A DNA stretch of 64,000 nt, taken from the NCBI GenBank assembly GCA_046483125.1, contig JAWODU010000085.1:1430-65429 (forward strand). Reading direction: 5' to 3'. The stretch is from Kiritimatiellia bacterium (GTDB lineage: Bacteria > Verrucomicrobiota > Kiritimatiellia > UBA8416 > JAWODU01). How positions within the stretch are numbered: the first letter of the stretch is position 1; the number at the start of each line of letters is the position of its first letter. This document shows, one piece after another, positions 3,580 through 56,722 of the stretch. The notes below the pieces were generated by a model. That model was not told where the DNA came from. It did not search any database and was given only the letters and a program-made list of their open reading frames with translations. Made by a program: the position numbers and the translations under genes.

Positions 3580-3720
3580 CTTAATCGAGCCCTTAACCGA
3601 CCCGCTTAATCGCTAACGCATTGCCTATTAACGGTTAAGTATATCGAGTGTATCCGAGTAAGGGCATCCGTCCGCCGCGGCGGAAAGGGTGGCGGTTAAG
3701 AATGCGAGTAAGGGTATCAA
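3580..3720. repeat. TTAA-periodic repeat module with GTCCGCCGCGGCGGAAAGGGTGGCGGTTAAG core
   Basis: The same core occurs at about 11120-11160, 22331-22361 and (reverse) 30498-30530. Confidence 0.8.
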
Positions 3721-3807: not shown

Positions 3808-4392
3808 TTACGGGAGTGTTCCGAAAAGGAGTATGCCTTCTTTTTCAACGCGCCGCCAGAGCGGCGTGTATTCTTCTCTGTCCATGGTGTTGGTGTCTAG
3901 AAGATGATGCTCGAGCGTCATGCCGTATCGCTCTTTTATTGCCTCACCGAGTTTATTTATCGTGCCGAGTGATTTGATTCGGGCTCTGCCGGTGGTAAAG
4001 AGCATCGTGACAATCAGACGTCCTCCGTAGTCGGTTTCCTCGCGCGCAAGCGGGCCGGTTGCCACCGCGGCCATAGGCCTGGGGCGCACGACACGCCGAA
4101 CGGTTTTCCGGAGGTCATCCCAGAAAAGCTCTTCTGCTTCAAAAGCTCCCTTCAGTGCTTTCGACACCAGGTAATGTCCGTGGTTGAGGCTGTAAAGATA
4201 GGAATTGCCGGTTTCGGCACGGGTAACTGCTCTGGCCTCAACCAGGAATTCAAGGGCGAGCATTGTGGACCTGTTCGAAAGCCCGCAGGCGCGTTCCACG
4301 CCCCTGCCGGTAAGCGATTCATTCGCTTTGTACAGGGCGCGCAAAACCATGACCTGACTGCGGTTTGCCAGTATGTAATTCAGGCCATCCAT
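3808..4392 (-). CDS. Winged-HTH plus degenerate minimal nucleotidyltransferase (MntA-like) protein
   Basis: N-terminal HTH (LTGRGVERACGLSNRSTMLALEFLVEARAV) followed by GPLAREETDYGGRLIV at the position of the GS-x-ARG...D-x-D motif. C-terminal REGILL-like end (EKEGILLFG). Confidence 0.65.
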   Translation of the reverse strand: MDGLNYILANRSQVMVLRALYKANESLTGRGVERACGLSNRSTMLALEFLVEARAVTRAETGNSYLYSLNHGHYLVSKALKGAFEAEELFWDDLRKTVRRVVRPRPMAAVATGPLAREETDYGGRLIVTMLFTTGRARIKSLGTINKLGEAIKERYGMTLEHHLLDTNTMDREEYTPLWRRVEKEGILLFGTLP

Positions 4393-4443
4393 TCGTATCT
4401 AAATCTTAATCTCCCCAAATCTTAATCCCAAGCTTAATCTTGT

Positions 4444-4803
4444 ATCCCCCGCGCCACGCAGGCCGGCGTGTGGCGGAGGGGTTCGGCTCTGCCTCTGCGC
4501 TCCGTGTGTGCCCTGTAGCCCTGCGTCACGCATTTCGTTCGCAAATCGAACCGCGATCTCACCGCTTCTGCTTCGTTTCCGCCCTCCTCGGGTATATGTA
4601 TACACGCTCGGAGGGCGGGGCCTTGCAGAAGCGGCAAGCTTGCGATCCGATTTGCGAATCCTACGGAAGCGAAATGCGTGACGCAACAGCCCGCATCGCG
4701 GGCGGCGTACTGGAGGTTTCACAGCGCCGCTTATCCGCGATGCAAGAAGAGTAGACCTCCCACCATCCTGTAGATCCGGTAGATCCTGTCTAAACATCTT
4801 CTC
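4444..4803. repeat. ~360-nt structured repeat element, copy A
   Basis: Reverse complement aligns to 14681-15048 and partly to 11214-11348. Contains a 164-nt hairpin (4522-4685) and a second hairpin (about 4694-4743). Confidence 0.88.
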
Positions 4804-4813
4804 CCCTTCTCCC

Positions 4814-4855
4814 ATTTCTGCTTTCTGCTTTCAACTTTCAGCTTTCAGCTTTTCT
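4814..4855. repeat. Heptamer tandem array (CTTTCnG)x5-6
   Basis: atttctg ctttctg ctttcaa ctttcag ctttcag cttttct. Confidence 0.75.
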
Positions 4856-5045
4856 TTTTGCGGCTATTCCAGTTCCGGACTTTCGGCGAACACATCCGTG
4901 AAATCGGTGGTTCTTACCTTCTTCAATGCCGAAAAGGCGGCATTTTTGCAATAGTGCAAATTCCTTCTTGACGGCAATTAACAAAATGGCGCAAATTAGG
5001 CAATGTTAAAGCTGGCGCAACCCGGTTGCCTGAAAAGATATGAAT

Positions 5046-6077
5046 ATGTGGAATGCTTTTTTGGGGATGTTCTCGAATGATATCGGGATCGATCTGGGCA
5101 CCGCGAACACGCTGGTTTACGTAAAAGAGCGGGGCATTGTGCTTCGCGAGCCTTCCGTAGTGGCCATTCAGGCCGGCACCAAACGCATTCTTGCCGTCGG
5201 TGAGGAAGCCAAACGCATGCTCGGCCGGACTCCCGGAAACATTGTCGCCGTAAGGCCGATGAAGGCCGGCGTAATTGCGGATTTCGAGATTACGGAGGCA
5301 ATGCTGAGGTACTTCATAAAGAAGGTCCATAACCGCCGCAAGATGGTTCGCCCCAGAATAATTATCGCGGTGCCCAGCGACATAACCGAAGTGGAAAAGC
5401 GGGCGGTTAAGGATTCGGCCACGCACGCCGGCGCGAGGGAAGTGTTCCTCATTGAAGAACCCATGGCCGCGGCCATAGGCGTGGGTCTTCCCGTTCAGGA
5501 ACCGGCGGGCAACATGGTTGTGGATATCGGCGGAGGCACAACGGAAGTGGCACTCATATCTCTTGCCGGTATCGTGTTCAGCCGCACGGTACGTGTCGGC
5601 GGTGATCAGATGGACGAGTGCATAGCCCAGTATATGAAACGCGTTTACAATTTGATGATAGGAGATCGAACGTCGGAAGATGTAAAGATGACAATGGGGT
5701 CGGCCTATCCGGTCGGGGATGAAACAAGTATTGAAGTTAAAGGGCGCGATTTGGTTGCAGGTTTGCCCAAGACCCTTTCCATAACGTCGGAAGAAATCCG
5801 CGAGGCTCTTCAGGAGCCCGTTTCTTCCATTATTGACGCCATAAGGATTACATTGGAGCGGTGTCCTCCGGAATTGTCGGCCGATCTTGTCGATAGAGGC
5901 ATGATCCTGGCCGGCGGAGGGTCGCTTTTGACGGGCATAGACAAGCTTATAGCCGAACAGACGGGTCTGCCCGTTCACGTGGCCGACGATCCGCTGAGCG
6001 CGGTGGCCGAAGGGACGGGAGTGGTTCTTAACGAGCTTAAATTCCTGCGTAAAACGGCCCACGCGGACCGTTTGTAA
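5046..6077 (+). CDS. mreB: Rod shape-determining protein MreB (start may be 5040 or 5046)
   Basis: [43 protein letters not shown]. Confidence 0.97.
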
Positions 6078-6213: not shown

Positions 6214-7059
6214 ATGAGAAGAGAGAGAAAAGTTATTGTTTGCGTTGTCTGTCTGGCCATCGTGCTTGTGCTGAACCTTCCTGCGAGCTGTGTACGGGAA
6301 ATCAAGGGGGAAACGCGGGACAGTTTCGTTCCCTTCCAGAACGTAATGTGGCTTGTGATCCGCGGCGGAGGTGATTTTCTGTCTTCGGTGACCAACGCCC
6401 GCGGGGAACTTGAAGAAAAAAAGGAAATGGAAAGAGAGATCGCGTTCCTTAACGAGAAGATTGTGAGTCTGGAAAATGCGGCGCGGGAAAACGAAATCCT
6501 GCGCGACAAACTGGGTTTCGCCAGCCGTGATGAAAGAAGCCTGAGACTCTGCGAGGTAGTGGGGCGGGACATAAGCGGATGGTGGCAGACGCTTACATTG
6601 AACGCGGGAGCTCATGAAGGCGTAAAAGAAAACATGGCGGTGATAACATCCGAGGGCCTGGTGGGGCACGTTAAATCGGTTTCCAGACATACGGCTACGG
6701 TATTGCTGATTACCGATCAGACATCGCGGGCGGCCTGCAGGCTGTCCCGGAGCGGCGCCTTCGGCGTAATTCGGGGCGCCGGTGTCGCCCTTAGCGGCAA
6801 GCACCGGCTGGAGATGCTTTATTCGGTAAGACCCTGTGTAATGGACTATATACCGAGTGATAGCGATGTAAAACCCAACGATCAAGTTTTGACTTCGGGT
6901 CTTGGAGGCGTTTACCCGTCGGGTCTTCTTGTGGGTTACGTGACCGCTATTCGGCCTTCGCCCTCGGCTCTATACCAGAGAGCCGAAGTAGTACCGGCGG
7001 CGGAACTCAGGTCTCTGAAATACGTTTTTGTGGTGATGGAGGAGGACGGAGAGGGATGA
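6214..7059 (+). CDS. mreC: Rod shape-determining protein MreC
   Basis: TM plus coiled coil (ENEILRDKL), GLVGHV, VLTSGLGGVYPSGLLVG. Follows mreB. Confidence 0.93.
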   Translation: MRRERKVIVCVVCLAIVLVLNLPASCVREIKGETRDSFVPFQNVMWLVIRGGGDFLSSVTNARGELEEKKEMEREIAFLNEKIVSLENAARENEILRDKLGFASRDERSLRLCEVVGRDISGWWQTLTLNAGAHEGVKENMAVITSEGLVGHVKSVSRHTATVLLITDQTSRAACRLSRSGAFGVIRGAGVALSGKHRLEMLYSVRPCVMDYIPSDSDVKPNDQVLTSGLGGVYPSGLLVGYVTAIRPSPSALYQRAEVVPAAELRSLKYVFVVMEEDGEG

Positions 7060-7150
7060 CGGATGACAGATGACAGATGACGGAGGACAGATGACAGACG
7101 ACGGAGGAAGGAGGACAGAGGGAGAGATTAAGATTGGGATTAAGATGGGC
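7054..7150. repeat. Mosaic repeat: (RGAYGAC)x9 followed by GATTAA/GATTGG hexamer tract
   Basis: ggatgac ggatgac agatgac agatgac ggaggac... then agggagagattaagattgggattaagatggg. Same module order at 10886 and 14554. Confidence 0.85.
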
Positions 7151-7184
7151 AGGCAAAGGTTATGCGAGACCATAGGGATATGAA

Positions 7185-9550: not shown

Positions 9551-9670
9551 TTAGGCAGGATCAATCCGCAGAATCAACAGGATAGTTTTCCGTCAATTAT
9601 GCGGCGACAGCCGCATGATTGGCGGCTTATGATGCATCTCAGATCCTGTAAATCCTGTCAGAAAATTCCC
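9551..9670. repeat. GACAGGAT...ATCCTGTC inverted-end mini-element with internal CAATTATGCGGC hairpin
   Basis: Ends ttaggcaggatc / gatcctgtaaatcctgtca. Homologous to 54310-54426. Right end matches the reverse complement of 56671-56699. Confidence 0.8.
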
Positions 9671-9684
9671 AGTGGAGAGAGCTA

Positions 9685-10878
9685 GTGAACCGGTTTACAG
9701 GGGAATTCAGAAAGTTCAGAGATTCAAGCTGGTCTTTGACGACAGCGGTGTTTCTGCTGGTTATTCTCGGAGTCATGTTCGTATCCAGCGCGTCCGAAGC
9801 GGCGGGCGAAAGTTACAGCGGACTCTGGCGGCGTCATCTGCTGAGGATCGCTCTGGGGATATGCTTCTACGGCTTTTTCTCCCTTTTTGATTACCGGAAT
9901 TTGAGAAAGGCGGCATGGGGACTGTATGCGCTGGCAATTGCGCTTCTGGTTCTCGTCCTTATGGTCGGCAAAGTTGTCAATAACGCGAAGAGCTGGCTCA
10001 TGATTTTCGGTTTCGGCCTTCAGCCCGCGGAAGTGGCCAAATTCGCGGTAATTGTGCTTCTTGCCGCGGTTCTGAGCCGTCCGAATTTTTCCGTGAACAG
10101 CGCGGGAGGGCTTGCGCTTACGGTATCGGCGGGGCTTCTGCCGTTTATTCTGATAGTGATACAGCCCGATATCGGCACCGCGGCGGTTTTCATACCCCTG
10201 ACGCTGGTCATGGCGTTCGCCGGAGGCGTGTCTCTGAGAGCGCTCGGTTACGGTCTCGGCATGATGTTACTGGCGGTTGTTCTGTTGCTTTCGGCCCTGT
10301 TTTTACCCCGAAAACTTGGAATGGAGGAAGAAACCTGCCGCCGAATCGCGCGGTATACTCTGCTGAGCGAATACCAGAGGGACAGAATAGTGGCCTTCTT
10401 CAGGCCGGAGCAGGATCCGCTGGGAGTGGGATGGAGCAAAATGCAGTCCAAGATAGCCGTCGGGTCCGGCGGATGGACGGGGAAAGGCTACGGCAAAGGC
10501 ACTCAGAGCGCTTTGGGTTACCTGCCCAGCACCGTGGCCCCCACGGATTTCATCTATTCCGTTATTGCCGAAGAGACGGGGTTTGCGGGGGCTTTTGCCG
10601 TACTGCTGTTGTTCGGAGCGGCGGCGGGGAAAGGCCTGTTGATAGCTGTCAACACCAGGAACAGAATGGGCCGGCTTCTGTGCGTGGGGGTAGTGACGGT
10701 GATTTTTACTCACGTGTTCATAAACACGGCCATGACGATAGGACTGATACCGATTACGGGACTGCCCCTGCCGTTAATAAGTTACGGTGGTACATTTACT
10801 GTAGTTACGATGGCTGGTCTCGGTGTGATACAGAGCGTTTGCATTTATTCGCGCAGAAGCTACGGGATGGAAAGGTGA
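9685..10878 (+). CDS. rodA: Rod shape-determining protein RodA (SEDS family)
   Basis: QPAEVAK, QPDIGTA, QSKIAVGSGGWTGKG, TDFIYSVIAEETGF, GLPLPLISYGG. Confidence 0.95.
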   Translation: MNRFTGEFRKFRDSSWSLTTAVFLLVILGVMFVSSASEAAGESYSGLWRRHLLRIALGICFYGFFSLFDYRNLRKAAWGLYALAIALLVLVLMVGKVVNNAKSWLMIFGFGLQPAEVAKFAVIVLLAAVLSRPNFSVNSAGGLALTVSAGLLPFILIVIQPDIGTAAVFIPLTLVMAFAGGVSLRALGYGLGMMLLAVVLLLSALFLPRKLGMEEETCRRIARYTLLSEYQRDRIVAFFRPEQDPLGVGWSKMQSKIAVGSGGWTGKGYGKGTQSALGYLPSTVAPTDFIYSVIAEETGFAGAFAVLLLFGAAAGKGLLIAVNTRNRMGRLLCVGVVTVIFTHVFINTAMTIGLIPITGLPLPLISYGGTFTVVTMAGLGVIQSVCIYSRRSYGMER

Positions 10879-10885
10879 GTAGCAC

Positions 10886-11348
10886 GGAGGACGGATGACG
10901 GACGACAGAGGACGGAGGGAGAGATTAAGATTGCGATTAAGATTATGAATAAGATGTGGGGAGATAAAGATAAAGATAAAGATTGGGATTAAGATGGGGA
11001 GAGGGGAGGGACACTTAGTCCATAGACTTAGTCGCAACACTTGGTCCTTTACGCTTACTCGACCCGCTTTGCCCGTAGTTGTTGAGAAGGAATCGGTCAA
11101 GTTTGGCGGTTAAGTGTAACCGTCCGCCGCGGCCGCGGCGGAAAGGGTGGCGACTAAGCGAGTCGATTAAGAGTGATAGATTAAGATTAAGATTGGGATT
11201 AAGATGGGGAGGAGAGAAGATGTTTAGACAGGATCAACAGGATGCTTGGGGCTCTGCTCCCCTTGCATCGCGTCCGGCGGCACTACAGTACCTCCGATAC
11301 GCCGCCAGCGATGCGGGCTGTTGCGTCACGCATTTCGCTTCCGCAGGA
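10886..11348. repeat. Composite repeat mosaic (heptamers, GATTAA tract, CCGCCGCGGCGG module, partial structured element copy C at 11214-11348)
   Basis: Segments match 7054-7150, 3580-3720 and the reverse complement of 4665-4803. Confidence 0.85.
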
Positions 11349-11416
11349 GACTCTCCGCATTTGGCCTTGCGGGACTGGCCCGCCGCACCTATACTGCGTG
11401 CTCAGGAAGGCGAACT

Positions 11417-14362: not shown

Positions 14363-14414
14363 CCCGCCGCCCGCGATGCGGGCTGGGAGCAACCACGGAT
14401 TTCAGGCATGTTCG

Positions 14415-14534
14415 CCGATCGGGGGATCGGCTCCTACAAAAGCCCTGCGGGTGAGACACCCGCTACTACAACGCCCGGAAGGTGTAATAACTCGTGTCCT
14501 CACGCGTGCATGTAGGAGGCGAACCATGTTCGCC
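14415..14534. repeat. Cluster of three GTAG-type REP-like palindromes
   Basis: Minus strand GTAG-GAG-CCGATC-CCCC-GATCGG (14415-14437). Minus strand GTAG-TA-GCGGGTG-TCT-CACCCGC (14447-14469). Plus strand GTAG-GA-GGCGAA-CCATG-TTCGCC (14512-14534). Confidence 0.7.
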
Positions 14535-14553
14535 GAAGGTCGGAACTGAGGGC

Positions 14554-14680
14554 AGATAACGGATGACGGACGACAGAAGACAGACTACGGACTACGGACT
14601 ACGGACTACTAAGGGAGAGATTATGATTAAGATGTGGGGAGATAAAGATAAAGATTAAGATTGGGATTAAGATGTGAGGC
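14554..14680. repeat. (RGAYNAC)x8 heptamers plus GATTAA/GATAAA tract
   Basis: agataac ggatgac ggacgac agaagac agactac ggactac x3, then agggagagattatgattaagatgtggggagataaagataaag, as at 10914-11000. Confidence 0.85.
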
Positions 14681-15048
14681 GAGAAGGCTTTTAGACAGGA
14701 TCTACAGGATCCTAAGAGCACTGCCCACACTGTCTCTACTGCTTTGCTCTTCTTGCATCGCGGATAAGCGGCGCTACAAAACCTCCAGTACGCCGCCCGC
14801 GATGCGGCAAACCGCGTGATGAATTCCGCTTCCGTAGGATTCGCAAATCGGATCGCAAGCTTGCCGCTTCTACAAGGCCCCGCGGGCTGAGCTGTATTCG
14901 TATACGCGAAGCCCGCGGAAACGAAGCAGAAGCGGTGAGATCGCGGTTCGATTTGCGAACGAAATGCGTGACGCAGGGTGGAGGGCAAGAACAGAGCCCA
15001 AAGACGCCGAACCCCTCCCCCACACGCCGGCCTGCGTGGCGCGGGGGG
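14681..15048. repeat. ~360-nt structured repeat element, copy B (inverted relative to copy A)
   Basis: Long near-identical blocks with the reverse complement of 4444-4803, e.g. ggaaacgaagcagaagcggtgagatcgcggttcgatttgcgaacgaaatgcgtgacgcaggg. Confidence 0.88.
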
Positions 15049-15102
15049 AGGACACACTCCCCTTGACACGAACCTCATTCTCCCACACATTTCTCTGCAT
15101 CC

Positions 15103-17610
15103 ATGAAAGACGAGTACCCATACGCCGAAATCGAAAAAAAATGGCAGGATTACTGGCGCGAGCAGGGCACTTTCAAAACCGACATCTCGCAATTTCAGAA
15201 CAAGTACTACTGCCTCACCATGTTCCCCTACCCCTCGGGGACCATGCACGTCGGCCACGGACGTAACTACATCATCGCCGACGCGCTTGCCCGCTACAAG
15301 AAGATGAAGGGGCTGAACGTCCTTGCGCCGATGGGCTGGGACTCGTTCGGGCTTCCAGCGGAAAACGCAGCCAAGGACAAGGGAGTGCATCCCCGGGAAT
15401 CCACAAAGGCCAATATCGCCCGGATGAAGCAACAGCTTAACGAATGGGGTGTCGGCTACGACTGGGATCGCGAAATATCAACGTCGCATCCGGAATACTA
15501 CAAATGGACACAGTGGATATTCCTCAAACTGTACGAGCGGGGTCTGGCTTACCAGAAAACCGCGCCCGTGAACTGGTGCGATTTCTGCACAACCCTGGCA
15601 AACGAAGAGGTTCTGCCTGACGGCACCTGCGAACGCTGCGGCAGGGGAGTGCGGAAACGCGACCTGAAGCAGTGGTTTTTTAAAATCACCGAATACGCTC
15701 AGCGCCTGCTGGACGATCTGGACCTCCTGGACCGATGGCCGGAAAAGGTGCGCCACATGCAGACCAACTGGATAGGCCGGTCTGAAGGATGCAGGGTCGA
15801 TTTCAGGATCACTGAAACCGGCGATTCCTGCCCGATTTTCACAACCCGTCCCGACACCATCTACGGTGTGACTTTCATGGCTATAGCTCCGGAGCACCCT
15901 CTCGTCGCCGGACTCATGGCCGGACATGAACGTGAAAAAGAAGTTATGGAATTCGTAAACCGCCAGCTCGTGATTTCTTCAGCCGTGCGGTCCGACGAAG
16001 CCACGGAGAAGGAAGGCGTGTTCACGGGTTATCACGTTACTAATCCTTACAACGGTGAAACCTCCGAGCTCTGGGTAACGAACTATGTCCTTATGGAATA
16101 CGGAACCGGCATTGTTATGGCGGTTCCCGCCCATGATCAGCGGGATTTTGAATTCGCGAAAAAATATTCCCTGCCGGTCAAAGTCGTGATCCAGAACCCG
16201 GACCGGAATCCGGACGTTTCGGCAATGACCGAAGCTTACGCGGACGACGGCATTCTGGTTGAATCGGGTCCTTTCACGGATCTCAACAACCGCGAAGCAG
16301 TAAGGAAGATGACGGAATATGCCTCTGAAAAGGGATTCGGCGGATTTGAAGTCACTTACCGGATCCGTGACTGGCTTATCAGCCGCCAGAGATACTGGGG
16401 CGCCCCGATCCCCGTGGTGCATTGCAAAAAGTGCGGCACGGTCCCGGTTCCGGAAAAAGATCTGCCAGTACTGCTTCCGGAAGACGTTGATTTCACCGTG
16501 ACAAAGGGCAATCCCCTGGCCTGTCGCGAAAATTTCGTGAACACCGCCTGCCCCGAATGCGGGGGGGCGGCCAGGCGTGAGACCGACACCATAGCGCAAT
16601 GGCTTTGTTCATGCTGGTATTTCATGCGTTACGTCAATCCCAGGCTTAAGGACCGGCCTTTCAATAAAGAAGACGTGGACCGCTGGCTCCCCGTGGACCA
16701 GTACATCGGAGGAGTCGAGCACGCCGTCCTGCACCTCCTGTACTCCCGCTTCATAGTCAAGGTCCTTTACGACGCGGGATACTGCTCTTTCAGCGAACCC
16801 TTCGCCGCCCTGTTCACCCAGGGGATGATCTGCAAAAAAAATGACAAAGACGGCAAGCTGTACAAAATGTCCAAATCCAAAGGCAACGTGGTCAGCCCCG
16901 ATGAACTCGTGAAGAATTACGGGGCCGATACCCTGCGGCTGTACACGCTGTTTATAGGGCCGCCGGAAAAAGACGCGGAATGGAACGATCAGGCTATAGA
17001 AGGCGCGTCGCGTTTCCTACGCCGCGTCTGGCGCCGGGTCCGGCAGAATGTCGAAAGTATCCGCGCCGCAAAAGGCGGGGAAAGCCGTCTTCAGGACATG
17101 CGGGAACCGGAACGCGAACTGTATCGTAAAATCAACGAAACGGTAGAACGGGTAACCAGAGATATGGAAGGCGCGTTCCACTTCAATTCGGCCATAGCCC
17201 GCGTGATGGAACTCGCTAATGCCGTGGACGATTCCGGTATTGACCCAAAAGGGGAAGGACAGGCCGCGGCGGTATATCGCAAAGCCGTCGAAACGCTGTT
17301 GCTCCTTCTTTCACCCTTCACTCCACACCTTGCCGAGGAGCTTTGGGAACAGATCGGGTTCCAGCCTGCTATTCTCGATGCCCGGTGGCCCTCGGTCGAC
17401 ACCGACGGCCTCCGGAGCGAAGAGGTTGAGATTGTTCTCCAGGTAAACGGCAAAGTCCGGGGCAGGATCACGGTTCCGGCCGGGTCCGACCGCAAGGTCC
17501 TGCAGGAAAAGGCCCTGAATAACGAAGGGGTAAGCAGGCATCTTCAGGGCAAAACGGTACGCAAGGTGGTAGTGGTACCCGATAAAATCGTCAACATCGC
17601 GGCAAGCTGA
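15103..17610 (+). CDS. leuS: Leucine--tRNA ligase
   Basis: MFPYPSG, HVGH (HIGH-like), [34 protein letters not shown]. Confidence 0.98.
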
Positions 17611-22186: not shown

Positions 22187-22463
22187 TGTCAAAAGTTCCA
22201 TGAACACGGACGAATGACGAGTTGGAACACTTAATCGCACACTTAACTGCTACCCTTTGTCGTATACGCTTAAACGACTCTGTTGCAACGGCTGGCACAT
22301 GACGAGTAAGCAGGTCGGTTAAGGGTGTGCGTCCGCCGCGGCGGAAAGGGTGGCGGTTAAGAAAGCGTTTAAGTGTATTGGGAAAAGGGGGAGAGAGTCG
22401 AAAAACGGCTAATGACCTGAAACAAGGACAGTTACACAGATAAACGTGCTGTCAGCTTTGACA
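22187..22463 (+). mobile_element. MITE-like element copy 1 (TGTCAAA...TTTGACA ends)
   Basis: Positions 22216-22463 are about 97% identical by hand alignment to the reverse complement of 30396-30644. No ORF and no clear TSD. Confidence 0.6.
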
Positions 22464-23400: not shown

Positions 23401-23811
23401 TTGTCTCGATCTTACAGGTCGGCAAACATGACAGTGCTGGGCCTGGTTCTCTATTGCCTGGCACTGCCTTTTTTATCGCCCTTCTTCTCGCGAATACTTC
23501 CCGACTGCCTTACGGCCTGCCCCTTTAGAACTCTCACGGGAAATCCCTGCGCCCTCTGCGGACTTACGCGCGGATTAAGGGCGCTGATAAACGGAAACGT
23601 AAAGGAGGCGGTGTCTCTTAACCCCCTGTGCGTACCGATAGCGGTATTGCTTTTTTTCGAAGCAGTGTTCAGATCGACAATGCTGATTCTTTCGCGCTAT
23701 CGGGAAATACCCGGCCGTGTGATACGACTGGACCTGTTGTTTCATATCGCGCTTCTGGCGACATACCTCGCCTATACCTCGGCATTCGCTCTCAGTACTT
23801 ACGCGTACTAA
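23401..23811 (+). CDS. DUF2752-family membrane protein (start 23401 or 23428)
   Basis: CPFRTLTGNPCALCGLTRG...A..LNP. Confidence 0.85.
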   Translation: MSRSYRSANMTVLGLVLYCLALPFLSPFFSRILPDCLTACPFRTLTGNPCALCGLTRGLRALINGNVKEAVSLNPLCVPIAVLLFFEAVFRSTMLILSRYREIPGRVIRLDLLFHIALLATYLAYTSAFALSTYAY

Positions 23812-26800
23812 GGGCCCGGTACGCCACAGTCAGCACCAGCGCGATCAACAGGCCCGCACCCCACCTCAGCATTCTGCCGCCGCTCATTTTGAAACTTACA
23901 ACCATGTCCGCTTCCGGATCCGTCTGCATGCTTCGCCTGAACATGAGTTTCCGGCCGTGAGTGGGAATTGTTATTTTTATGGCCTGCGCGCTCCTTTCGG
24001 CCGCCGCCTGCTGATCCATTATGCGTTCAGAAAGCTTCAGAAGGCTCGTATTGTCCCTCTCGGAAAGCGACTGCTGGATTCTGTTGGCGTACTCGGCGGT
24101 GAAGTTGCCCTGCCTGAAGTCCTCTATCCTGGCCACCTGGCCGGCCTGCTGTATGTTCTTGTCGAACCGCATCTTGTCGCGTCTTTGAACAAGTCCCACC
24201 AGCGCCTGCTGTTTGGCAAGGTTGCGGAACTGGATCCTGGCGTCCTCGTTAAAGGCCAAGTCGTTTTGGGACCAGTTTACGGCCGACTCCAGGGCCTTGC
24301 GCGCCAGTTTCTGCTGTCCCTGTTGTGCGTACTTCTCCCCCTTGGCCAGCACAGATTTAGCCTTTTCCTGTTCCTCTGCAATCTTGCGCAGATTGCTGAT
24401 ATTGTATTGCTGTCTGGTAAAAGCCTGGAGGACCGGTTCTTTGTCTTCGACAGGGTTCATGGTGCCGCCGAACCCATAATACAGCCTTCCCGGCACTACG
24501 TAAAACGTCCATTCTATGTCCTTCTTGAGCGGCAAACCGAACTTCGGCGCCTTGTACGAAAGCCTGCTGGAATACCATTTCCCCGGCGAAGGACTGACGT
24601 AGACCATTTCCACTTCGGTTTTCTCACCCGGCACCGGTTCTTCCAGAGGGATCCTGTACACCCCGCCCTCCTCCGAAACCGAAGCCGCCTTGCCGTTTAC
24701 GAAGGCCGACCACAGTTCCGAACCTTCTTCCGGCAGTTCTATCTCCAGGAAGCGCAGGTCCCCCACCGTCATCTCCATGCTGACCCTGGTCAGTATATCT
24801 CCCTGGCCGGATACCACCGACGTCAGTCTTGTACTGCTTACTTCGGCGGGAAGCACCTCAGCCGCTCCATGCCGTATGACCGAAAGGTCCAGTTCATACT
24901 CGCCGCCTATTGTACGGAAACAGTATACGGCGTCCGACAGGTCCCCTGCCCCGAAATACCCGGGGACGGACCGGGAATCCTCCCTCTTAAGGCCCGCCGG
25001 CGTTCCCGCCGGACGAACCTCAGCTCTCCCTTCGGACATGACCGCGAGGTAGCCTTTGCGGCTTTCCACATCAAGCGGCACGATCGCCCGGATTTTTCCC
25101 GCCTGTGTCGTCTGGTACCGGGCCTCAAGCTGGTAGTCGTTCAGGACCTTGTTGTGAAGTTCCACCTCCCATATTCCCTTTTCCCTGTCGGCTTCATGCA
25201 CTTTCGCGATGTCGCGCCCGGTCATTGCAAGGGAAATACCGGGAGCCGGGGCCTTCAGCCGGAAAGTCTTACAGCCGGCGTGCTCAATCCTGTAACGGAC
25301 ATAGGCCGTGCCCCGCATCTTTCCCTCGGACAGATCCACCCTGTGAAGGACTTCGGTCCTTATTGTCGGCTCCACCGTTTCGGCCTTCAGTTGAATCATC
25401 CATTCCGGCCGAAGCAGTTTGAAAGCGAGCGCGCCGGTCTCCCTTATTCCCAGGTCCCGCGGATTCATCTCGCTCACGCCTTTGCGCATAACCGTACTCA
25501 TGCGCACCCCGCGCTCTCCCCTTACAACCATCTGTCCGGTGTGCTTGAGAGCGTCCTGTACTGCTATACGCGGCACGTATATCGTCTCCTCCAGTCCCTT
25601 CTCAGTCCGCGCGGCCACGACGTTAAGCGTCCGGTCGCCCAGCGCCTTTTTCCTGAAATGGACGATGACTTCCCTGGGGGTCCTGCCGTCGGCTTCACCT
25701 CCCACTTCATCCCAGTGACTCACGTCCTGGCCGGTCAGACTCTCCACGTCATATTCGTCCGGTATCCCGAGGCGTACCGAGAATATCCCGGCTTTACTTA
25801 TGCCGACCTTCAGGTGGGTGGAGAGGACTATCCGTTCGTCGGACACCGACATACTGCCGTTTTCCGCCACTCTCAGTTCCGGAAGCACCCTTTCGGCTGT
25901 CACCTTCCCCGAAGCGGGCGTTTTGTGATAGCGGAAAGCTCTTTTGATTTCCGGCACTTCCTTCATTCGCGCCGCTGTGCCGACCTCACGAACCAGCCGC
26001 TCCGAAACGTCCTCGATATTCATCGGGTGCAGTCCCTCTGTTTCACTGACAAGTATTTTCACGTTGCCCGGCACAGCCAGGGCCATCGAGCCTCTCTGCC
26101 TGACCGCGTCTTTCACCTTCAATATTCCGGCCTGAACTTTATACGGAAGACCCTCGCATCCGACCTGGCTTACCACGTGAAGCGTGAAGTCACCCGTAAC
26201 GGGTTTATCCACGATAGCCTCCAGCAGGCGTGTTTCCGGATCGAAGCGCCATGTACTCAGGCCCGGGGCTTTCACCGCCGTTACCGTCATATTCTCGGGC
26301 ACCTCAACGTTCATTGATTTCAGTTCGCCCTGGGCAATCTGGTATTTCACCAGGTTCGTAAGCTCGACTACCCCCGGCTGAAACACCGCCATGGTGTTCA
26401 GTTCAGAGAAGAAAACGACCTTTTCCAGCCTGGTTTTGCGCGCACGCGGCCGCCATGAGATAAATGCCTGTCTTGACATACCGTACACGGCAATAGCCTC
26501 CGTTACGTCTTCCTTCTCCGTAGTCTTGAACAGAACCGCGTCCGGCGATTCGACTTCAAGCTCGTTTTCCGGAATCTCGAGTTTCACCCTGTTTTTCAGA
26601 TTAGGAGGAATCCTCAAGCCGAGAAACCACGCACCCTCTTTTTCCACAAGGGGCAGAGAATACTTCAGATTGATTTCGTAATCTCCCCTTTCCTCAACCG
26701 TAAGCACGTACCCGTTCACGTCCGTGCGGAGCTGGAGGGCGGAAGAATTCAGATCGTAATCCGTAAGCACGGCCGGCGGTCTCAGGACGACAAACTCACT

Positions 26801-29800
26801 GCCCTTACGCCCTTCGAATTCATATACAGCGTCCACCCTCGCGCTCTTTTCCGCTTCTTCAGTCATTTCAGGCGCCTTCACCTGTATGTTCACTTCTTTC
26901 ATCGCGGGAAGTACGTCCGTTTCAGCCTTGTCTAAGGGCTCTCCAGCCGCCCAGCCCAGCGAGGCACCGATAATACCGATGGCCACAAGGCATGATATGG
27001 TGCCGTGACCTTGCTGGTGCCGGTCCGGTTCTTCCGGCTCGTCGAACCGGTCCGGCTCCACGGTGTCTTCCGTTTCCTCCTCAAAAGGCATCCCATCAAG
27101 AGGCGCTTCTTCGGAAGGCATTTCAGGAGGCCCGGCGGGAGCCGGTCCCGCCGGAACGGGGCGCCGTGTCCCGGCCGCGTATGCCGCCTTTACAAGGCGC
27201 AACACAACCGCGACAGCCACACCCACAGCGAACATGATCGTTATCAGGTTGCGGCCTGTTTCCAGTTGCGCCAGCCCGAATGTAAGAAGCGTAAAACCAA
27301 GTGCCGTGCACCAGGCCCTGCGCTTCCGGCCGGACCTCCCCTTCAGAATAAGCCAGAGAGAAAGCACGACGGCGACAACCGCCCAGAGGAGCGAGCTGTC
27401 CGCTCCTATCCATTCCGGTACCAGGCGCAGATCCACGGCAAGCGGTTCTGCTCCTTCGAGATTAACTGTCCTTGAAACGGAAAAACTGCTGCCGGCCGCC
27501 GGCCCGCGAAAAACGTCCACGGTTCTCTCAAGGCCGCTCCACATCCGGCCCAACTGCCACAACCCTCCCGCGAACAACACGGTTATCAGCGCGACCACGC
27601 CGAGGGCTCCCTGCCATCCGAACCCTCTGCCCCGGCCGGTATTGAAGGCCACAAGGCATGTAAACAGGACTGCCGCCAGCGCGACAACCGTCCACCCCGC
27701 GAAGTCTGTCAGGGCAATTCCGTACAGCTTCAGCATATTGCGCAGGGCTTCCACTATGCCGCCGGTCCATATCGACATCGCTCTGCTCATGTTTCCCCCC
27801 GCCGTACCTACGGTGTATCCTTCGGGAAGGAAAAACTCCCATTTCGCGAAGGTATTCGGTGTATTTCCCGTTACGGGGGCAAGAAACCTCATGCTTTTCC
27901 CCAGAGCCCCGATTTCGTCCCTGCTCCGCGCGTATACCACCTCGACCCGTACAGGCTCGTTAGGGTTCCTCAGCCGCCGCACCGGAATAAGAATGCGGCC
28001 GTCTTCCTTGAGTGCCGTTACTTCCGTCTTTTCTTCATTTGCATTTATAAGAGAGGTCGACCACAGGTTCGCCTCCTCGGGAATTGAGACAATCAGGTAC
28101 TGACGCGAAAGGTTCTTGACCGAATATTCCGCCGTAGTCACCGCCTCGCCGTCTTTGCTGATTCTCGTTGACAGCATTGTCAGATCCACCACGGCGTCAA
28201 GAAGGCGTTCTGTTTCGTAGCGCTTGATGCCGATTTTCGCGGTATGCGGATGCCCGGTGTACTTGTAAGCGTCGAGAATCGGATCGTTCACCAGAAGAGT
28301 GTAGGCCTCGGGCACTTCATCACGATCGACCTTTATTATGGATTTGTCGCGTTCCTGAAGCGTCAGGTTCAGCGCCGCGGCCCCCGCAAGCATGATATAC
28401 CCCGTCTCGGTGGTGGTCTCCACGGTACTGACCCCTCCCACTGTCACCTCGTCGGCCCTGTAAGCGAATTTTCTGTCGTAGGTAACTCCAAGCGTATAGT
28501 CTCCCATTACCTTTTCCTGGAGAGATATCTCCCACACTTCGCCGTCGTGTTTCCAGCCGCGCACGTCTCTGCCCGTAAATTCCACGTTCTGAAACTCTTC
28601 CGGTATTCTTATCCTGAAAGTCTTAACGGGCGCCCCGGCAATGTGATATGTGGCCGCGGAACTGCAGTAGAGCACTCCTTCCCCTATGGACACCAGGTGG
28701 AACAATTCGGAGTGTATGGTTGGTTTTGTTCTTTCGAACTTCACGTCAAGCGACCACTCGCCCTCCTTGTACCGGTAAGCGAGCTGGGCCCCGGGCACTT
28801 TCACGGGGACCGATCCGGTTTGAACTTCCCGCAGTTTCCCGGTTTCGCACTTTTCTATCCTGAGGCCCTTTTCCACCGACAGAACCAGGTAGCCGCGCTG
28901 TGATTCAGAGTCCCTGATCACGAAAGCCGGCGCCTGAAACCGCGTCTTGTCCCCCGGAAGCGACTTTTCAAGCCGCACGTTTACCAGTGTCCGTCCTGTT
29001 ACGGCGTCCCGGAAAAACACGCTTATTTCACGTTTGCCGTTCCTGGTACGAACGTTGTAATCCGAAAGCGCCGCTCCGCTCACGTTGGCCACGATCCAGT
29101 CGGGGTCCGTCTCTATAACGATCTCCCTCGCCGGTGCGTCACGCACGTCAAGTTCCACCGAAGCCGCCAGTACCAGGTCGCTGTCCTTCACGGACAGTAC
29201 AAGCTGTTCGTTACTGCTGTATTCCGAGACAATATCGTCGATGGAAAGTTTGAGTGTATAAGGCACGTTGGCGTACTGGTAGGCGAACCTGCTCCTGGAC
29301 GGCAGTGTTCTCCCGCTTTGTTTCTTTCCCTCCAGGGCCACTTCCGGAAACGACGTCTGGTCCACCTGAGTCAGTCCGAGCGCCTTGTCCACGAGCAGTT
29401 TAATCGCGCTGTCAGTGCCCAGCATGAGGAACCCACTGCTCCGGATTACCCGCCGGGGAATAATCACCGGGAGTTCCAGTTCGCAGGGAAACTTGGGCAG
29501 AACCGTTTCGCTTTCCACCCTCAGCATATAGTCCTTTTCCTTCGGACGGCTCAGAGTCACCAGGAGCGTGCGCGCCGCCTCGCCTTCCTTTTCCTGTATT
29601 ACCCAGTCCTGTATATCCTCGCCGCGCACCTGAGTGACGCTCAGTTCCTCCGGAAGCCTCAGAGGAATCTCTTTAAGACTGCCCTGCACGACACGGTATG
29701 TGAATACGTTGTCTATTTTGAGCGCTCCCACGCTCGCCGACGCTATTGTGTTGGCGTCGCACGCCACCACCAGGTCGGCCGCGAGTTTCTTCACTTCCGG

Positions 29801-30367
29801 CTTCCATTTCACGTTGAAACTGCCCGCCAGCCCCAGAAACGCGGTTACTTCCATGTCCCCCTTGTCCGTTTTGACGCGCTCGACGTTCAGCGCGCCCGGA
29901 AAGCGGATTTCGAGGTCATCCCGGTCGCACAGAATGGACACTTTTCTTATGTCGGCGCCCGGAATGGAGAAACTGGCAGAGCGCCAATCGCCTTCCCTGG
30001 CGGCCCTTCCCGCGAATTTGAACTCTACCGTCCGTTTTCCCGAATCGAAGCTCCAGAAACCGCCCTTACGCTTCATTTTGAGAATATACCGGTCCGACCC
30101 GCGGATAAGCTCGGAATTCGAAGGAAGATCTCCTTCCAGGTAGGCCACATCTCCTATTAAAAGCGGCAGGCTCACGGCGTCCTGCTCAAGCTCTGCCGTA
30201 AACGAAAGCGTGAAAGTGATATTCTCGCCTTCTATCCTGCCGTCGAGCTTCAGCCCCGATATTTCCACTCCTTCGGTCCGTGGAAGCGCTTCCTTTTGCC
30301 CGCGAGCCCAAGCACCCGCCGGCGCCATTAACCCCGCCAACGCTATTACCGTAATCAGTCTTTTCAT
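23792..30367 (-). CDS. Giant (2191 aa) secreted/membrane protein of two homologous halves with repeated beta-sandwich-like units
   Basis: Uninterrupted ORF with N-terminal signal (AWA), SD AGGGAG, a central multi-TM block, a C-terminal TM and an internal duplication. Confidence 0.9.
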   Translation of the reverse strand: MKRLITVIALAGLMAPAGAWARGQKEALPRTEGVEISGLKLDGRIEGENITFTLSFTAELEQDAVSLPLLIGDVAYLEGDLPSNSELIRGSDRYILKMKRKGGFWSFDSGKRTVEFKFAGRAAREGDWRSASFSIPGADIRKVSILCDRDDLEIRFPGALNVERVKTDKGDMEVTAFLGLAGSFNVKWKPEVKKLAADLVVACDANTIASASVGALKIDNVFTYRVVQGSLKEIPLRLPEELSVTQVRGEDIQDWVIQEKEGEAARTLLVTLSRPKEKDYMLRVESETVLPKFPCELELPVIIPRRVIRSSGFLMLGTDSAIKLLVDKALGLTQVDQTSFPEVALEGKKQSGRTLPSRSRFAYQYANVPYTLKLSIDDIVSEYSSNEQLVLSVKDSDLVLAASVELDVRDAPAREIVIETDPDWIVANVSGAALSDYNVRTRNGKREISVFFRDAVTGRTLVNVRLEKSLPGDKTRFQAPAFVIRDSESQRGYLVLSVEKGLRIEKCETGKLREVQTGSVPVKVPGAQLAYRYKEGEWSLDVKFERTKPTIHSELFHLVSIGEGVLYCSSAATYHIAGAPVKTFRIRIPEEFQNVEFTGRDVRGWKHDGEVWEISLQEKVMGDYTLGVTYDRKFAYRADEVTVGGVSTVETTTETGYIMLAGAAALNLTLQERDKSIIKVDRDEVPEAYTLLVNDPILDAYKYTGHPHTAKIGIKRYETERLLDAVVDLTMLSTRISKDGEAVTTAEYSVKNLSRQYLIVSIPEEANLWSTSLINANEEKTEVTALKEDGRILIPVRRLRNPNEPVRVEVVYARSRDEIGALGKSMRFLAPVTGNTPNTFAKWEFFLPEGYTVGTAGGNMSRAMSIWTGGIVEALRNMLKLYGIALTDFAGWTVVALAAVLFTCLVAFNTGRGRGFGWQGALGVVALITVLFAGGLWQLGRMWSGLERTVDVFRGPAAGSSFSVSRTVNLEGAEPLAVDLRLVPEWIGADSSLLWAVVAVVLSLWLILKGRSGRKRRAWCTALGFTLLTFGLAQLETGRNLITIMFAVGVAVAVVLRLVKAAYAAGTRRPVPAGPAPAGPPEMPSEEAPLDGMPFEEETEDTVEPDRFDEPEEPDRHQQGHGTISCLVAIGIIGASLGWAAGEPLDKAETDVLPAMKEVNIQVKAPEMTEEAEKSARVDAVYEFEGRKGSEFVVLRPPAVLTDYDLNSSALQLRTDVNGYVLTVEERGDYEINLKYSLPLVEKEGAWFLGLRIPPNLKNRVKLEIPENELEVESPDAVLFKTTEKEDVTEAIAVYGMSRQAFISWRPRARKTRLEKVVFFSELNTMAVFQPGVVELTNLVKYQIAQGELKSMNVEVPENMTVTAVKAPGLSTWRFDPETRLLEAIVDKPVTGDFTLHVVSQVGCEGLPYKVQAGILKVKDAVRQRGSMALAVPGNVKILVSETEGLHPMNIEDVSERLVREVGTAARMKEVPEIKRAFRYHKTPASGKVTAERVLPELRVAENGSMSVSDERIVLSTHLKVGISKAGIFSVRLGIPDEYDVESLTGQDVSHWDEVGGEADGRTPREVIVHFRKKALGDRTLNVVAARTEKGLEETIYVPRIAVQDALKHTGQMVVRGERGVRMSTVMRKGVSEMNPRDLGIRETGALAFKLLRPEWMIQLKAETVEPTIRTEVLHRVDLSEGKMRGTAYVRYRIEHAGCKTFRLKAPAPGISLAMTGRDIAKVHEADREKGIWEVELHNKVLNDYQLEARYQTTQAGKIRAIVPLDVESRKGYLAVMSEGRAEVRPAGTPAGLKREDSRSVPGYFGAGDLSDAVYCFRTIGGEYELDLSVIRHGAAEVLPAEVSSTRLTSVVSGQGDILTRVSMEMTVGDLRFLEIELPEEGSELWSAFVNGKAASVSEEGGVYRIPLEEPVPGEKTEVEMVYVSPSPGKWYSSRLSYKAPKFGLPLKKDIEWTFYVVPGRLYYGFGGTMNPVEDKEPVLQAFTRQQYNISNLRKIAEEQEKAKSVLAKGEKYAQQGQQKLARKALESAVNWSQNDLAFNEDARIQFRNLAKQQALVGLVQRRDKMRFDKNIQQAGQVARIEDFRQGNFTAEYANRIQQSLSERDNTSLLKLSERIMDQQAAAERSAQAIKITIPTHGRKLMFRRSMQTDPEADMVVSFKMSGGRMLRWGAGLLIALVLTVAYRALSTRKY

Positions 30368-30395: not shown

Positions 30396-30679
30396 TGTCA
30401 AACCTGACAGCACGTTTTTCTGTGTAACTGTCCCTTTTTTCAGGTCATTAGCCGTTTTTCGACTCTCTCCCCCTTTTCCCAATACACTTAAACGCTTTCT
30501 TAACCGCCACCCTTTCCGCCGCGGCGGACGCACACCCTTAACCGACCTGCTTACTCGTCACGTGCCGGCCGTTGCAACAGAGTCGTTTAAGCGTATACGA
30601 CAAAGGGTAGCGGTTAAGTGTGCGATTAAGTGTTCCAACTCGTCCTACATCCGTTTTTGTCGCGGTAGAACTTTTGACA
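30396..30679 (-). mobile_element. MITE-like element copy 2 (inverted copy of 22187-22463)
   Basis: Near-identical reverse complement with the same TGTCAAA termini. Confidence 0.6.
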
Positions 30680-54309: not shown

Positions 54310-54519
54310 TTTTTTTGACAGGATTTACAGGATCCGGGAGACCCCAGCACGCCGGCAATTATGCAAACACAGCCGCATAATTGCCGACCGGCTATCCTGT
54401 TGATCTTGTTGATCCCGTCTAATCCCTTTTTCGATCCAATAAAGAACTCTCGTTTCCCTGGACTCTCCGAATCCGCGCCATCAGTGGACGTCCCCTCCCC
54501 CATCCCGCATCCCGTATTC
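54310..54519. repeat. GACAGGAT-type mini-element plus GTGGACGTCCCCTC motif and heptamers between trpG and trpD
   Basis: ttttgacaggatttacaggatc...ggcaattatgc..gcataattgcc...atcctgttgatcttgttgatcccgtctaa. gtggacgtcccctc at 54484-54497 is identical to 53189-53202. Confidence 0.82.
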
Positions 54520-56647: not shown

Positions 56648-56722
56648 AGCGCTTCCGTAAGAAAGGCCGGGGGAATTTTCTGACAGGATCTACGGGATCT
56701 ACGGGATTATAAGAGCGCTTCC
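56648..56722. repeat. Half GACAGGAT element flanked by a 9-bp direct repeat AGCGCTTCC
   Basis: gggaattttctgacaggatctacgggatc (56671-56699) matches the reverse complement of the right end of 9551-9670. agcgcttcc at 56648-56656 and 56714-56722. Confidence 0.6.

Follow-up and report, generated by a model that had tools for sequence, protein, structure and literature searches.

A candidate family of hairpin-forming, noncoding interspersed repeats in intergenic spacers of a Kiritimatiellia bacterium

In a 64-kb stretch of DNA (the whole of which we refer to here as the window), we observed a structured element of ~365 nt that probably belongs to a family of noncoding, hairpin-forming interspersed repeats, a REPIN/BIME/MITE-like mosaic spread in intergenic spacers rather than a gene; we hold this reading with moderate confidence. 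The element is noncoding and multicopy, it is inserted at gene junctions that are short in related genomes, its copies include truncated ones and lie in a mosaic of other repeats, and it folds in a strand-symmetric manner.

Results

Copies and internal layout

The three copies on which the original prediction was built, full ones at 4444-4803 and (inverted) 14681-15048 and a partial one at 11214-11348, were recovered by exact search, repeat finding and alignment, and are called here A, B and C, respectively (Table 1). The end of copy C at 11348 is that given by repeat finding and alignment; nhmmer placed it at ~11362. Together with a 21-nt scrap located directly 3' of the g13100 stop codon, the window contains two full copies, one truncated copy and one scrap, all between 4.4 and 15.1 kb (a span of 10.6 kb). 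Copy A is flanked by the divergent genes g3808 (3808-4392, minus strand) and mreB (5040-6077, plus strand). Copy B lies between g13100 (ankyrin/MORN, plus strand) and leuS (15103-17610, plus strand), and copy C lies between rodA (9685-10878, plus strand) and g11417 (plus strand). Copy C is itself a mosaic, with an H2 arm and tail like those of A and flanking repeats like those of B.

A full copy consists of a GC-rich hairpin (H1, with one G-G mismatch in copy B), a variable linker (40 nt in copy A), a long hairpin (H2), a two-tier hairpin (H3) and a tail of 9-mer direct repeats, whose terminal sequence in copy A is GATCCTGTCTAAA. The 164-nt hairpin with a perfect 16-bp stem was found exactly as it had been described, with the 16-mer TGCGTCACGCATTTCG at 4522-4537 and its complement at 4670-4685 (exact search), and small local palindromes are present within each H2 arm. 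The ends of the element, CCCCCGCGCC... and ...GATCCTGTCTAAACATCTTCTC, are not inverted repeats of each other, and no direct repeat or target-site duplication was found flanking A, B or C. The palindromic 11-mer TGCGTSACGCA was rejected as a wider operator motif, since four of its five exact matches in the window fall within the element (the fifth is at 29135).

Comparison of the flanks of A and B revealed an extra conserved block of 23 nt, which is separated from copy A by variable tandem repeats (4798-4852). Because this block is common to A and B beyond the simple repeats, the duplicated unit may be closer to 450 nt in length and contain a fast-evolving microsatellite.

Table 1 Positions of the element, its parts and associated repeats in the window
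Feature	Position	Strand	Evidence or remark
Copy A, full (H1, linker, H2, H3, tail)	4444-~4808	+	Repeat finding, alignment; nhmmer 4446-4803, E 1.5e-123
Copy B, full, inverted orientation	14681-15048	-	Repeat finding, alignment, nhmmer, exact search
Copy C, 5'-truncated (3' part of H2, then H3 and tail)	11214-~11362	-	Repeat finding, alignment, nhmmer
21-nt scrap, identical to 4687-4707 (start of H3)	14365-14385	-	E 0.09 when extended
H1, GC-rich 5' hairpin, CCCCCGCGCCACGC / GCGTGTGGCGGAGGGG	4446-4481	+	Fold; 98% identity to B
H2, 164-nt near-perfect hairpin (long imperfect palindrome), perfect 16-bp closing stem	4522-4685	+	Folds
H2 apical module, 9-bp stem and GTAT-N4-ATAC tip	4579-4618	+	Alignment, pair counting, exact search
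H3, 51-nt two-tier hairpin	4693-4743	+	Conserved in A, B and C; mini-stem changes wobble or compensated
Tail, 9-mer direct repeats CATCCTGTA GATCCGGTA GATCCTGTC TAAA	4764-4794	+	Motif also at the mini-palindrome termini
Extra conserved 23-nt block CAGTTCCGGACTTTCGGCGAACA	4870-4892	+	Score 34 versus 16.4 +/- 2.1 for shuffles
Copy B counterpart of CAGTTCCGGACTTTCGGCGAACA	14527-14548	-	Comparison of A and B flanks
Mini-palindromes, ~110 nt	9552-9665, 54316-54422		Inside the operons PBP2-rodA and trpG-trpD
TTAATC-type simple-repeat module	4401-4441 (by A), 14640-14673 (by B), 11165-11210 (by C)	+ (4401-4441)	Abuts each copy

Folding and preservation of pairing

Folded as RNA, the whole element reached z-scores of -6.8 (plus strand) and -8.3 (minus strand) relative to shuffles, and H2 alone, folded as single-stranded DNA, reached -10.6 in copy A and -4.6 in copy B. 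The approximately equal folding of both strands and the H2 value of -10.6 match what a DNA palindrome should show. The minus strand gives the more stable H2 (-105.6 versus -96.9 kcal/mol), and the plus strand gives marginally more stable H1 and H3. Where a paired site differs by a single transition, the result on the plus strand is G-U in six of seven cases (our own count, one-sided p about 0.06). Strand assignments from the G-U asymmetry and from the energies contradict each other, and neither strand is favored.

When pairs were counted in the A/B/C alignment, 96.8% of the cells of the 97 proposed pairs were paired, a figure to be read with the pairing model derived from copy A itself and with the sequences compared being two and a half paralogues from one contig. 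Five pairs had changed on both sides, the H2 apical stem accounting for four, which are contiguous, and the H3 mini-stem for the fifth. Exact search located the apical stem as CCGCCCTCC/GGAGGGCGG at 4579-4587/4610-4618 in A and as CCGCGGGCT/AGCCCGCGG at 14880-14888/14910-14918 in B, with GTAT-N4-ATAC at 4592-4603 and 14894-14905, respectively, so that the four compensated double substitutions and the retained inner mini-stem of the original prediction were both reproduced. By our informal estimate, four compensated doubles in one 5-bp block are unlike independent neutral substitution. The second hairpin that had been reported as conserved despite substitutions, H3, was likewise found in all three copies.

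Differences between the cores of A and B affected 18 of 194 paired and 22 of 104 unpaired positions (9% versus 21%; Fisher p=0.007). Eight of the 18 paired-site differences belong to compensated doubles, and about five lead to G-T pairs. A shuffle control for pairing was weak, as the observed values were reached by 21 of 500 shuffles. The outer H2 stem of copy B is degenerate, as had been noted, with 3 of 17 pairs broken and 2 changed to G-T; the breaks are uncompensated, and the degenerate basal 3' arm lies at 14813-14828. Copy C keeps A's version of this arm, and the damage to the basal stem is therefore specific to B.

Divergence between A and B was patchy, with 64 identical bases, 12 differences in 32, 56 of 57 identical and 10 differences in 20, a pattern suggestive of mosaic exchange with family members not seen here or of local hypervariability, and unlike clock-like decay. 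A flip/flop inversion of the H2 tip was also considered and was uninformative, the tip itself being palindromic. The proposal that structure rather than sequence is under selection thus holds in part: the substitutions do spare pairing, but the B stem is uncompensated, and since the comparison comprises two full copies and a fragment, all paralogues on one contig, mosaic recombination or palindrome-templated correction would be indistinguishable from such selection.

Coding potential, RNA families and transcription signals

The element had been taken to be noncoding, and the ORFs and frames indeed differ between A and B, the copies being separated by frame-shifting indels. No protein homologue was found when the concatenated six-frame translation was compared with 5.8 billion protein clusters. 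With neither a common reading frame nor a six-frame homologue, a coding or decayed gene was rejected. A known RNA family was rejected as well, in line with the original prediction: the gathering-threshold scan of the 64 kb with Rfam 15 gave tRNA-Met as its sole match, with none in the element, and permissive scans of the element (E<=10) hit nothing but miRNA models, as generic long hairpins scoring far under threshold (44 versus 268 and 27 versus 76 bits).

A and B become homologous precisely at H1, and the sequence upstream is unrelated; consequently, no promoter common to the copies was found. No U-tract terminator was found 3' of any hairpin. In our reading, the 9-mer tail motif contains a -35-like TAGACA/TTGACA without a consistent -10. 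A search for guide-like complementarity of the variable segments to flanking or other window DNA yielded chance 10-mers only.

Insertion relative to related genomes

MreB encoded in the window is 84-93% identical to that of metagenome-assembled genomes (MAGs) labelled Victivallales, Lentisphaerota or Kiritimatiellae, and for LeuS the 5.8-billion-cluster protein collection contains nothing above 75% identity, so that no close relative was available for comparison. The window comes from an uncultured bacterium of the PVC group, in its Kiritimatiellota/Lentisphaerota part.

The gene order g3808(-)/mreB-mreC-mreD-PBP2-rodA is conserved in related MAGs. The spacers at the element junctions are 3 to 9 times shorter there: the g3808-mreB spacer measures 647 nt here versus 152-248 nt in five related MAGs, and the ankyrin/MORN-leuS spacer measures 740 nt here versus 83 nt (L081) and 251 nt (L085). 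With LeuS identity to these relatives of only about 75%, the spacer sequences are not alignable, which prevents the definition of an exact empty site. The short spacers and the absence of the element in the relatives point to the copies being lineage-specific insertions, as judged from sequence comparison. A CTTGACG box with a T-rich lead-in, about 65-80 nt before the mreB start (window 4958-5000), is kept downstream of the insert. The box is conserved in four of five related mreB spacers (among L003, L029, L006, L010 and L004), L004 having the variant CTTGACC at about 85 nt. The box probably represents the -35 region of the mreB promoter, and no canonical -10 comes after it.

An inversion of the 9.9-kb mre segment mediated by A and B was rejected: both ancestral adjacencies, g3808-mreB and ankyrin/MORN-leuS, are preserved, and no inversion exists at present. 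The g3808 product (194 aa, without a Pfam match) is encoded by a divergent neighbor of mreB in 7 of 13 related loci (55-71% identity), and its N terminus resembles, in our reading, a winged-helix domain.

Other repeats in the same spacers

In the spacers 4393-5039, 10879-11416 and 14363-15102, the element occurs together with heptamer and AGATTA arrays, fragments of a 225-nt repeat family and the 9-mer motif, and the most structured spacers of the window are those carrying such repeats. Full copies of the 225-nt family, 96% identical and in inverted orientation, lie at 22203-22427 and 30433-30657, and fragments lie at 3659-3717 and 11117-11158. This repeat folds as a ~145-nt hairpin (z -5.7) and is found between an M16 peptidase gene and a DUF1844 gene, where L081 has only a 46-nt spacer; it too represents an insertion relative to L081. 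Its full copies bracket an 8-kb segment containing an ORF of 2191 aa (23792-30367, minus strand; no Pfam match), which could constitute an invertible or recombinogenic arrangement.

The mini-palindromes (Table 1) have inverted termini of 9-mer direct repeats (TTTWGACAGGATYTACAGGATC) around the hairpin CCGNCAATTATGC..GCATAATTGNCGG, and their terminal motif is the 9-mer motif of the element's tail. This motif occurs 8-fold in the window and is nearly absent from relatives; a lone 9-mer motif precedes trpE (56680-56708). A similarly built but differently spelled element, ACGGATTACACGGAT ... hairpin ... ATCCGTGATATCCGT, was seen upstream of leuS in L085 (about 9840-9930).

The TTAATC-type module that abuts each copy also occurs without the element, at 7125-7154. 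Simple-repeat modules at 7041-7154, 10884-11003 and 14548-14673 consist of purine-rich heptamers (GGATGAC, ACGGAGG, GACTACG) followed by AGATTAAGATTGGGATTAAGATG arrays, and start either at or just past stop codons (mreC, rodA) or deeper into the spacer (after g13100). In the purine heptamer arrays, TGA occurs in every reading frame and GGAGG motifs are numerous. Read on the gene-sense strand, the order is heptamer repeats, AGATTA repeats, element and gene; heptamer and AGATTA-type arrays are also present between mreC and mreD, without the element. Relatives have short spacers without heptamer or hexamer modules. Possible functions of these modules are those of reinitiation sites, standby sites or promoter-like AT islands.

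Two REP-like units in inverted orientation, about 75 nt apart, lie by copy B (14400-14437, minus strand; 14512-14545, plus strand), each with GTAGGAG followed by a palindrome with a 7-bp stem (GCCGATC-CCCC-GATCGGC; GGCGAAC-CAT-GTTCGCC). GTAGGA with an imperfect palindrome is also present on the H2 minus strand (4664 and 14834). GC skew in the window is positive at 6-12 kb and negative from 24 kb on, in parallel with the shift from predominantly plus-strand to predominantly minus-strand genes, and the change could reflect gene-strand bias or a replication-related switch.

Searches for homologues and mobilizers

The H3 core, which A, B and C have in common, gave no matches when scanned as an exact pattern against genome, metagenome and viral contigs, and the exact pattern of a 22-mer from the H2 arm gave none in viral contigs. 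The 22-mer had two metagenome matches, both inside a coding gene, which we rejected as homologues and regard as chance matches. These collection-wide scans used exact patterns and are insensitive to diverged copies, so that outside the close relatives the absence is weak. In the related MAGs, no copy was found in 86 loci (1.3 Mb) by blastn, nhmmer or a covariance model of H2 and H3, and distant blastn detected nothing in plasmid and phage records.

A co-occurring mobilizer gene, which the original prediction had suggested looking for, was not found either: no transposase, Y1/RAYT, Y1_Tnp, IS200/605 TnpA or TnpB, integrase, reverse transcriptase or HUH protein was present among the 40 window proteins scanned, and where Pfam gave a match, the function was housekeeping, transport, envelope-related or regulatory.

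The best match of the covariance model outside the window (L045, 2088-2322, 19 bits) was an unrelated 235-nt hairpin (z -9.3) composed of inverted GTAG-plus-palindrome units (GTAGCCGTGGGCTTCAGCCCACGG), a classic REPIN-like doublet, on a contig that also carries a verrucomicrobial-type MreB. MAGs titled Klebsiella pneumoniae, Bifidobacterium sp., Acidoferrum, Methylomirabilota and Saccharimonadales (L062, L051, L038, L043, L045, L056) contain Verrucomicrobiota-type MreB that is 74-75% identical to that of the window, which suggests that these GTDB-representative MAGs are mislabelled or contaminated bins.

Discussion

The original prediction had proposed either a structured noncoding RNA or a REPIN/HUH-transposase substrate. 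The lineage-specific insertion, the truncated copies and the mosaic of hairpin and tandem repeats lead us to favor a REPIN-like DNA element over a noncoding RNA gene, although no mobilizer to go with the HUH part of the proposal was found among the 40 window proteins scanned. We infer that copying and homogenizing took place at the DNA level and that copies losing the palindrome decay. The agent might be an enzyme not linked to the element that works in trans on its folded single-stranded form, as RAYTs do on REPINs, or recombination or gene conversion among the copies. If long palindromes were needed for a copy to be propagated or tolerated, the arms would be conserved, the H2 tip would undergo only pairing-preserving changes, and inactive copies (B with its basal stem, the truncated C) would decay. 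Read-through from neighboring genes would produce very stable RNA hairpins from the copies, and effects on the host, such as transcript stabilization or insulation, would be secondary. Counting against the repeat reading are the lack of a mobilizer among the 40 window proteins, of terminal inverted repeats, of a target-site duplication and of a precise empty site. With all copies lying within 10.6 kb, local duplication and recombination, without transposition, could be their source. H2, at 164 nt, also exceeds typical REPINs in length, and exact-pattern, blastn and profile searches found no homologue elsewhere. The deficit of pair-breaking changes would be equally expected of a selected RNA.

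Selection by the host for a cis-acting function is, in our view, rather unlikely. The element would then be a structured spacer, co-transcribed with its neighbors or acting as DNA, that stabilizes upstream mRNA, blocks read-through, insulates or positions promoters, or binds a protein. Roles of this kind have been attributed to REP/BIME, ERIC and Correia elements, and a cis-acting role may be the exapted state of a selfish repeat. Each of the three copies has its H1 end 52-69 nt upstream of an opposite-strand start codon (g3808, leuS, g11417), although chance alone would bring all three orientations into agreement about one time in four. The fixed order of modules on the gene-sense strand and the pair-sparing substitutions fit such a role, as does the position of B and C between co-directional genes, where read-through gives the reverse complement, which folds even better. 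However, there is no U-tract terminator and no common promoter, copy C is truncated, the basal stem of copy B is broken, and relatives manage the same junctions with element-free spacers of 80-250 nt. Less probable still, and in our estimation doubtful, is a family of genes for a trans-acting structured RNA of about 300 nt, a new RNA class in which the covarying apical stem-loop would be the specificity determinant. Its loops vary while its stems hold, with four compensated apical pairs and one in H3; the fold z-scores are very low, no known family was matched, and six of the seven single paired-site transitions go to G-U on the plus strand (p about 0.06, our own count). Homology that starts at H1 without a common promoter, the lack of a terminator 3' of H3, the greater stability of H2 on the minus strand, the uncompensated basal stem of B and the truncation of C all speak against it, as do the absence of the element from all relatives searched and the failure of variable-segment k-mers to match other window DNA beyond chance. 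Moreover, paralogues from one contig cannot give real covariation statistics, 21 of 500 shuffles reaching the observed value.

We give little credence to the more specific version in which such a ~300-nt RNA is made from multiple loci, its fast-evolving and always-paired H2 apical module sets specificity (e.g., for a protein partner or a processing enzyme), and the repeat-like behavior of the DNA reflects the spread of the gene family. The remnant of a decayed gene, or a simple segmental duplication without structural meaning, is very improbable: the copies are clustered within 10.6 kb and have flanking modules in common, but no six-frame protein homologue exists in the collection searched, the copies are out of frame with one another through indels, a dead gene would not be expected to show such hairpin z-scores and compensated pairs, and the copies differ in orientation and adjoin unrelated genes.

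If the interspersed-repeat reading is true, hairpin-type interspersed repeats would here be described for the first time in Kiritimatiellota (PVC superphylum), for which we found no literature on such repeats, and at least three co-resident families, together with abundant tandem modules, would have roughly tripled several housekeeping intergenic spacers. Repeats of this type are relevant to MAG annotation, where they break assemblies and attract spurious ORF calls, and to the origin of REPIN-like elements outside Proteobacteria. As for long-standing questions, the finding opens none; compensatory changes are a known behavior of this kind of element.

Comparison with known systems

REPINs consist of two short REPs (palindromes of about 20-25 nt with a conserved flanking tetranucleotide), measure about 70-110 nt overall and occur in tens to hundreds of extragenic copies along with a cognate single-copy RAYT (Y1 transposase) gene that is usually repeat-flanked. 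In Pseudomonas and Enterobacteria, the RAYTs (TnpA-REP) act in trans on the folded single strand of REPINs. Our element resembles REPINs and BIMEs in being extragenic, in having in H2 a hairpin of two inverted arms with identical 16-mers at the ends and a variable middle that stays paired, in the equal folding of both strands, and in its defunct partial copies, mosaics with other modules and lack of target-site duplication. Compensatory changes in the spacer of a hairpin repeat have already been described for REPINs, which have invariant 16-mers at both ends and a variable middle kept paired by such changes (PMC3116915); on their own, these changes therefore do not indicate RNA. Unlike a REPIN, H2 alone measures 164 nt, with arms of about 80 nt, and sits in a ~365-nt unit together with two unrelated hairpins and a 9-mer tail. 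A REP unit with a conserved 5' tetranucleotide is not present in both arms, GTAGGA occurring only on the minus strand in the 3' arm. Given the overlong arms, the lack of a REP unit in both arms and the lack of a RAYT among the 40 window proteins scanned, membership in the REPIN/RAYT system proper is not established.

Among known large noncoding RNAs of Rfam (6S, HEARO/omega RNA, OLE, GOLLD, ROOL), a length of 160-360 nt and a very stable predicted structure are similar features. Our element differs from them in having no credible match at E<=10, in being multicopy with truncated members, and in having no associated protein gene and no conservation across species. The PATEs of IS200/IS605 and other HUH substrates share with it subterminal GC-rich hairpins readable on single-stranded DNA and the lack of target-site duplication, but left and right PATE hairpins are alike, whereas H1 and H3 are unrelated in sequence, and neither TnpA nor TnpB was found among the scanned window proteins. 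In contrast to bacterial MITEs and long palindromic repeats (Correia/NEMIS, ERIC/IRU, RUP, BOX), our 365-nt unit is not bounded by terminal inverted repeats and shows no target-site duplication, and it has no similarity to plasmid or phage records and no known parent IS. Like them, however, it falls in the range of 100-400 nt, is noncoding, lies between genes in lineage-specific full and truncated copies, and forms long stem-loops, which in these repeats are often co-transcribed. As in BIME-like mosaics, different modules are combined in variable order in the intergenic spacers.
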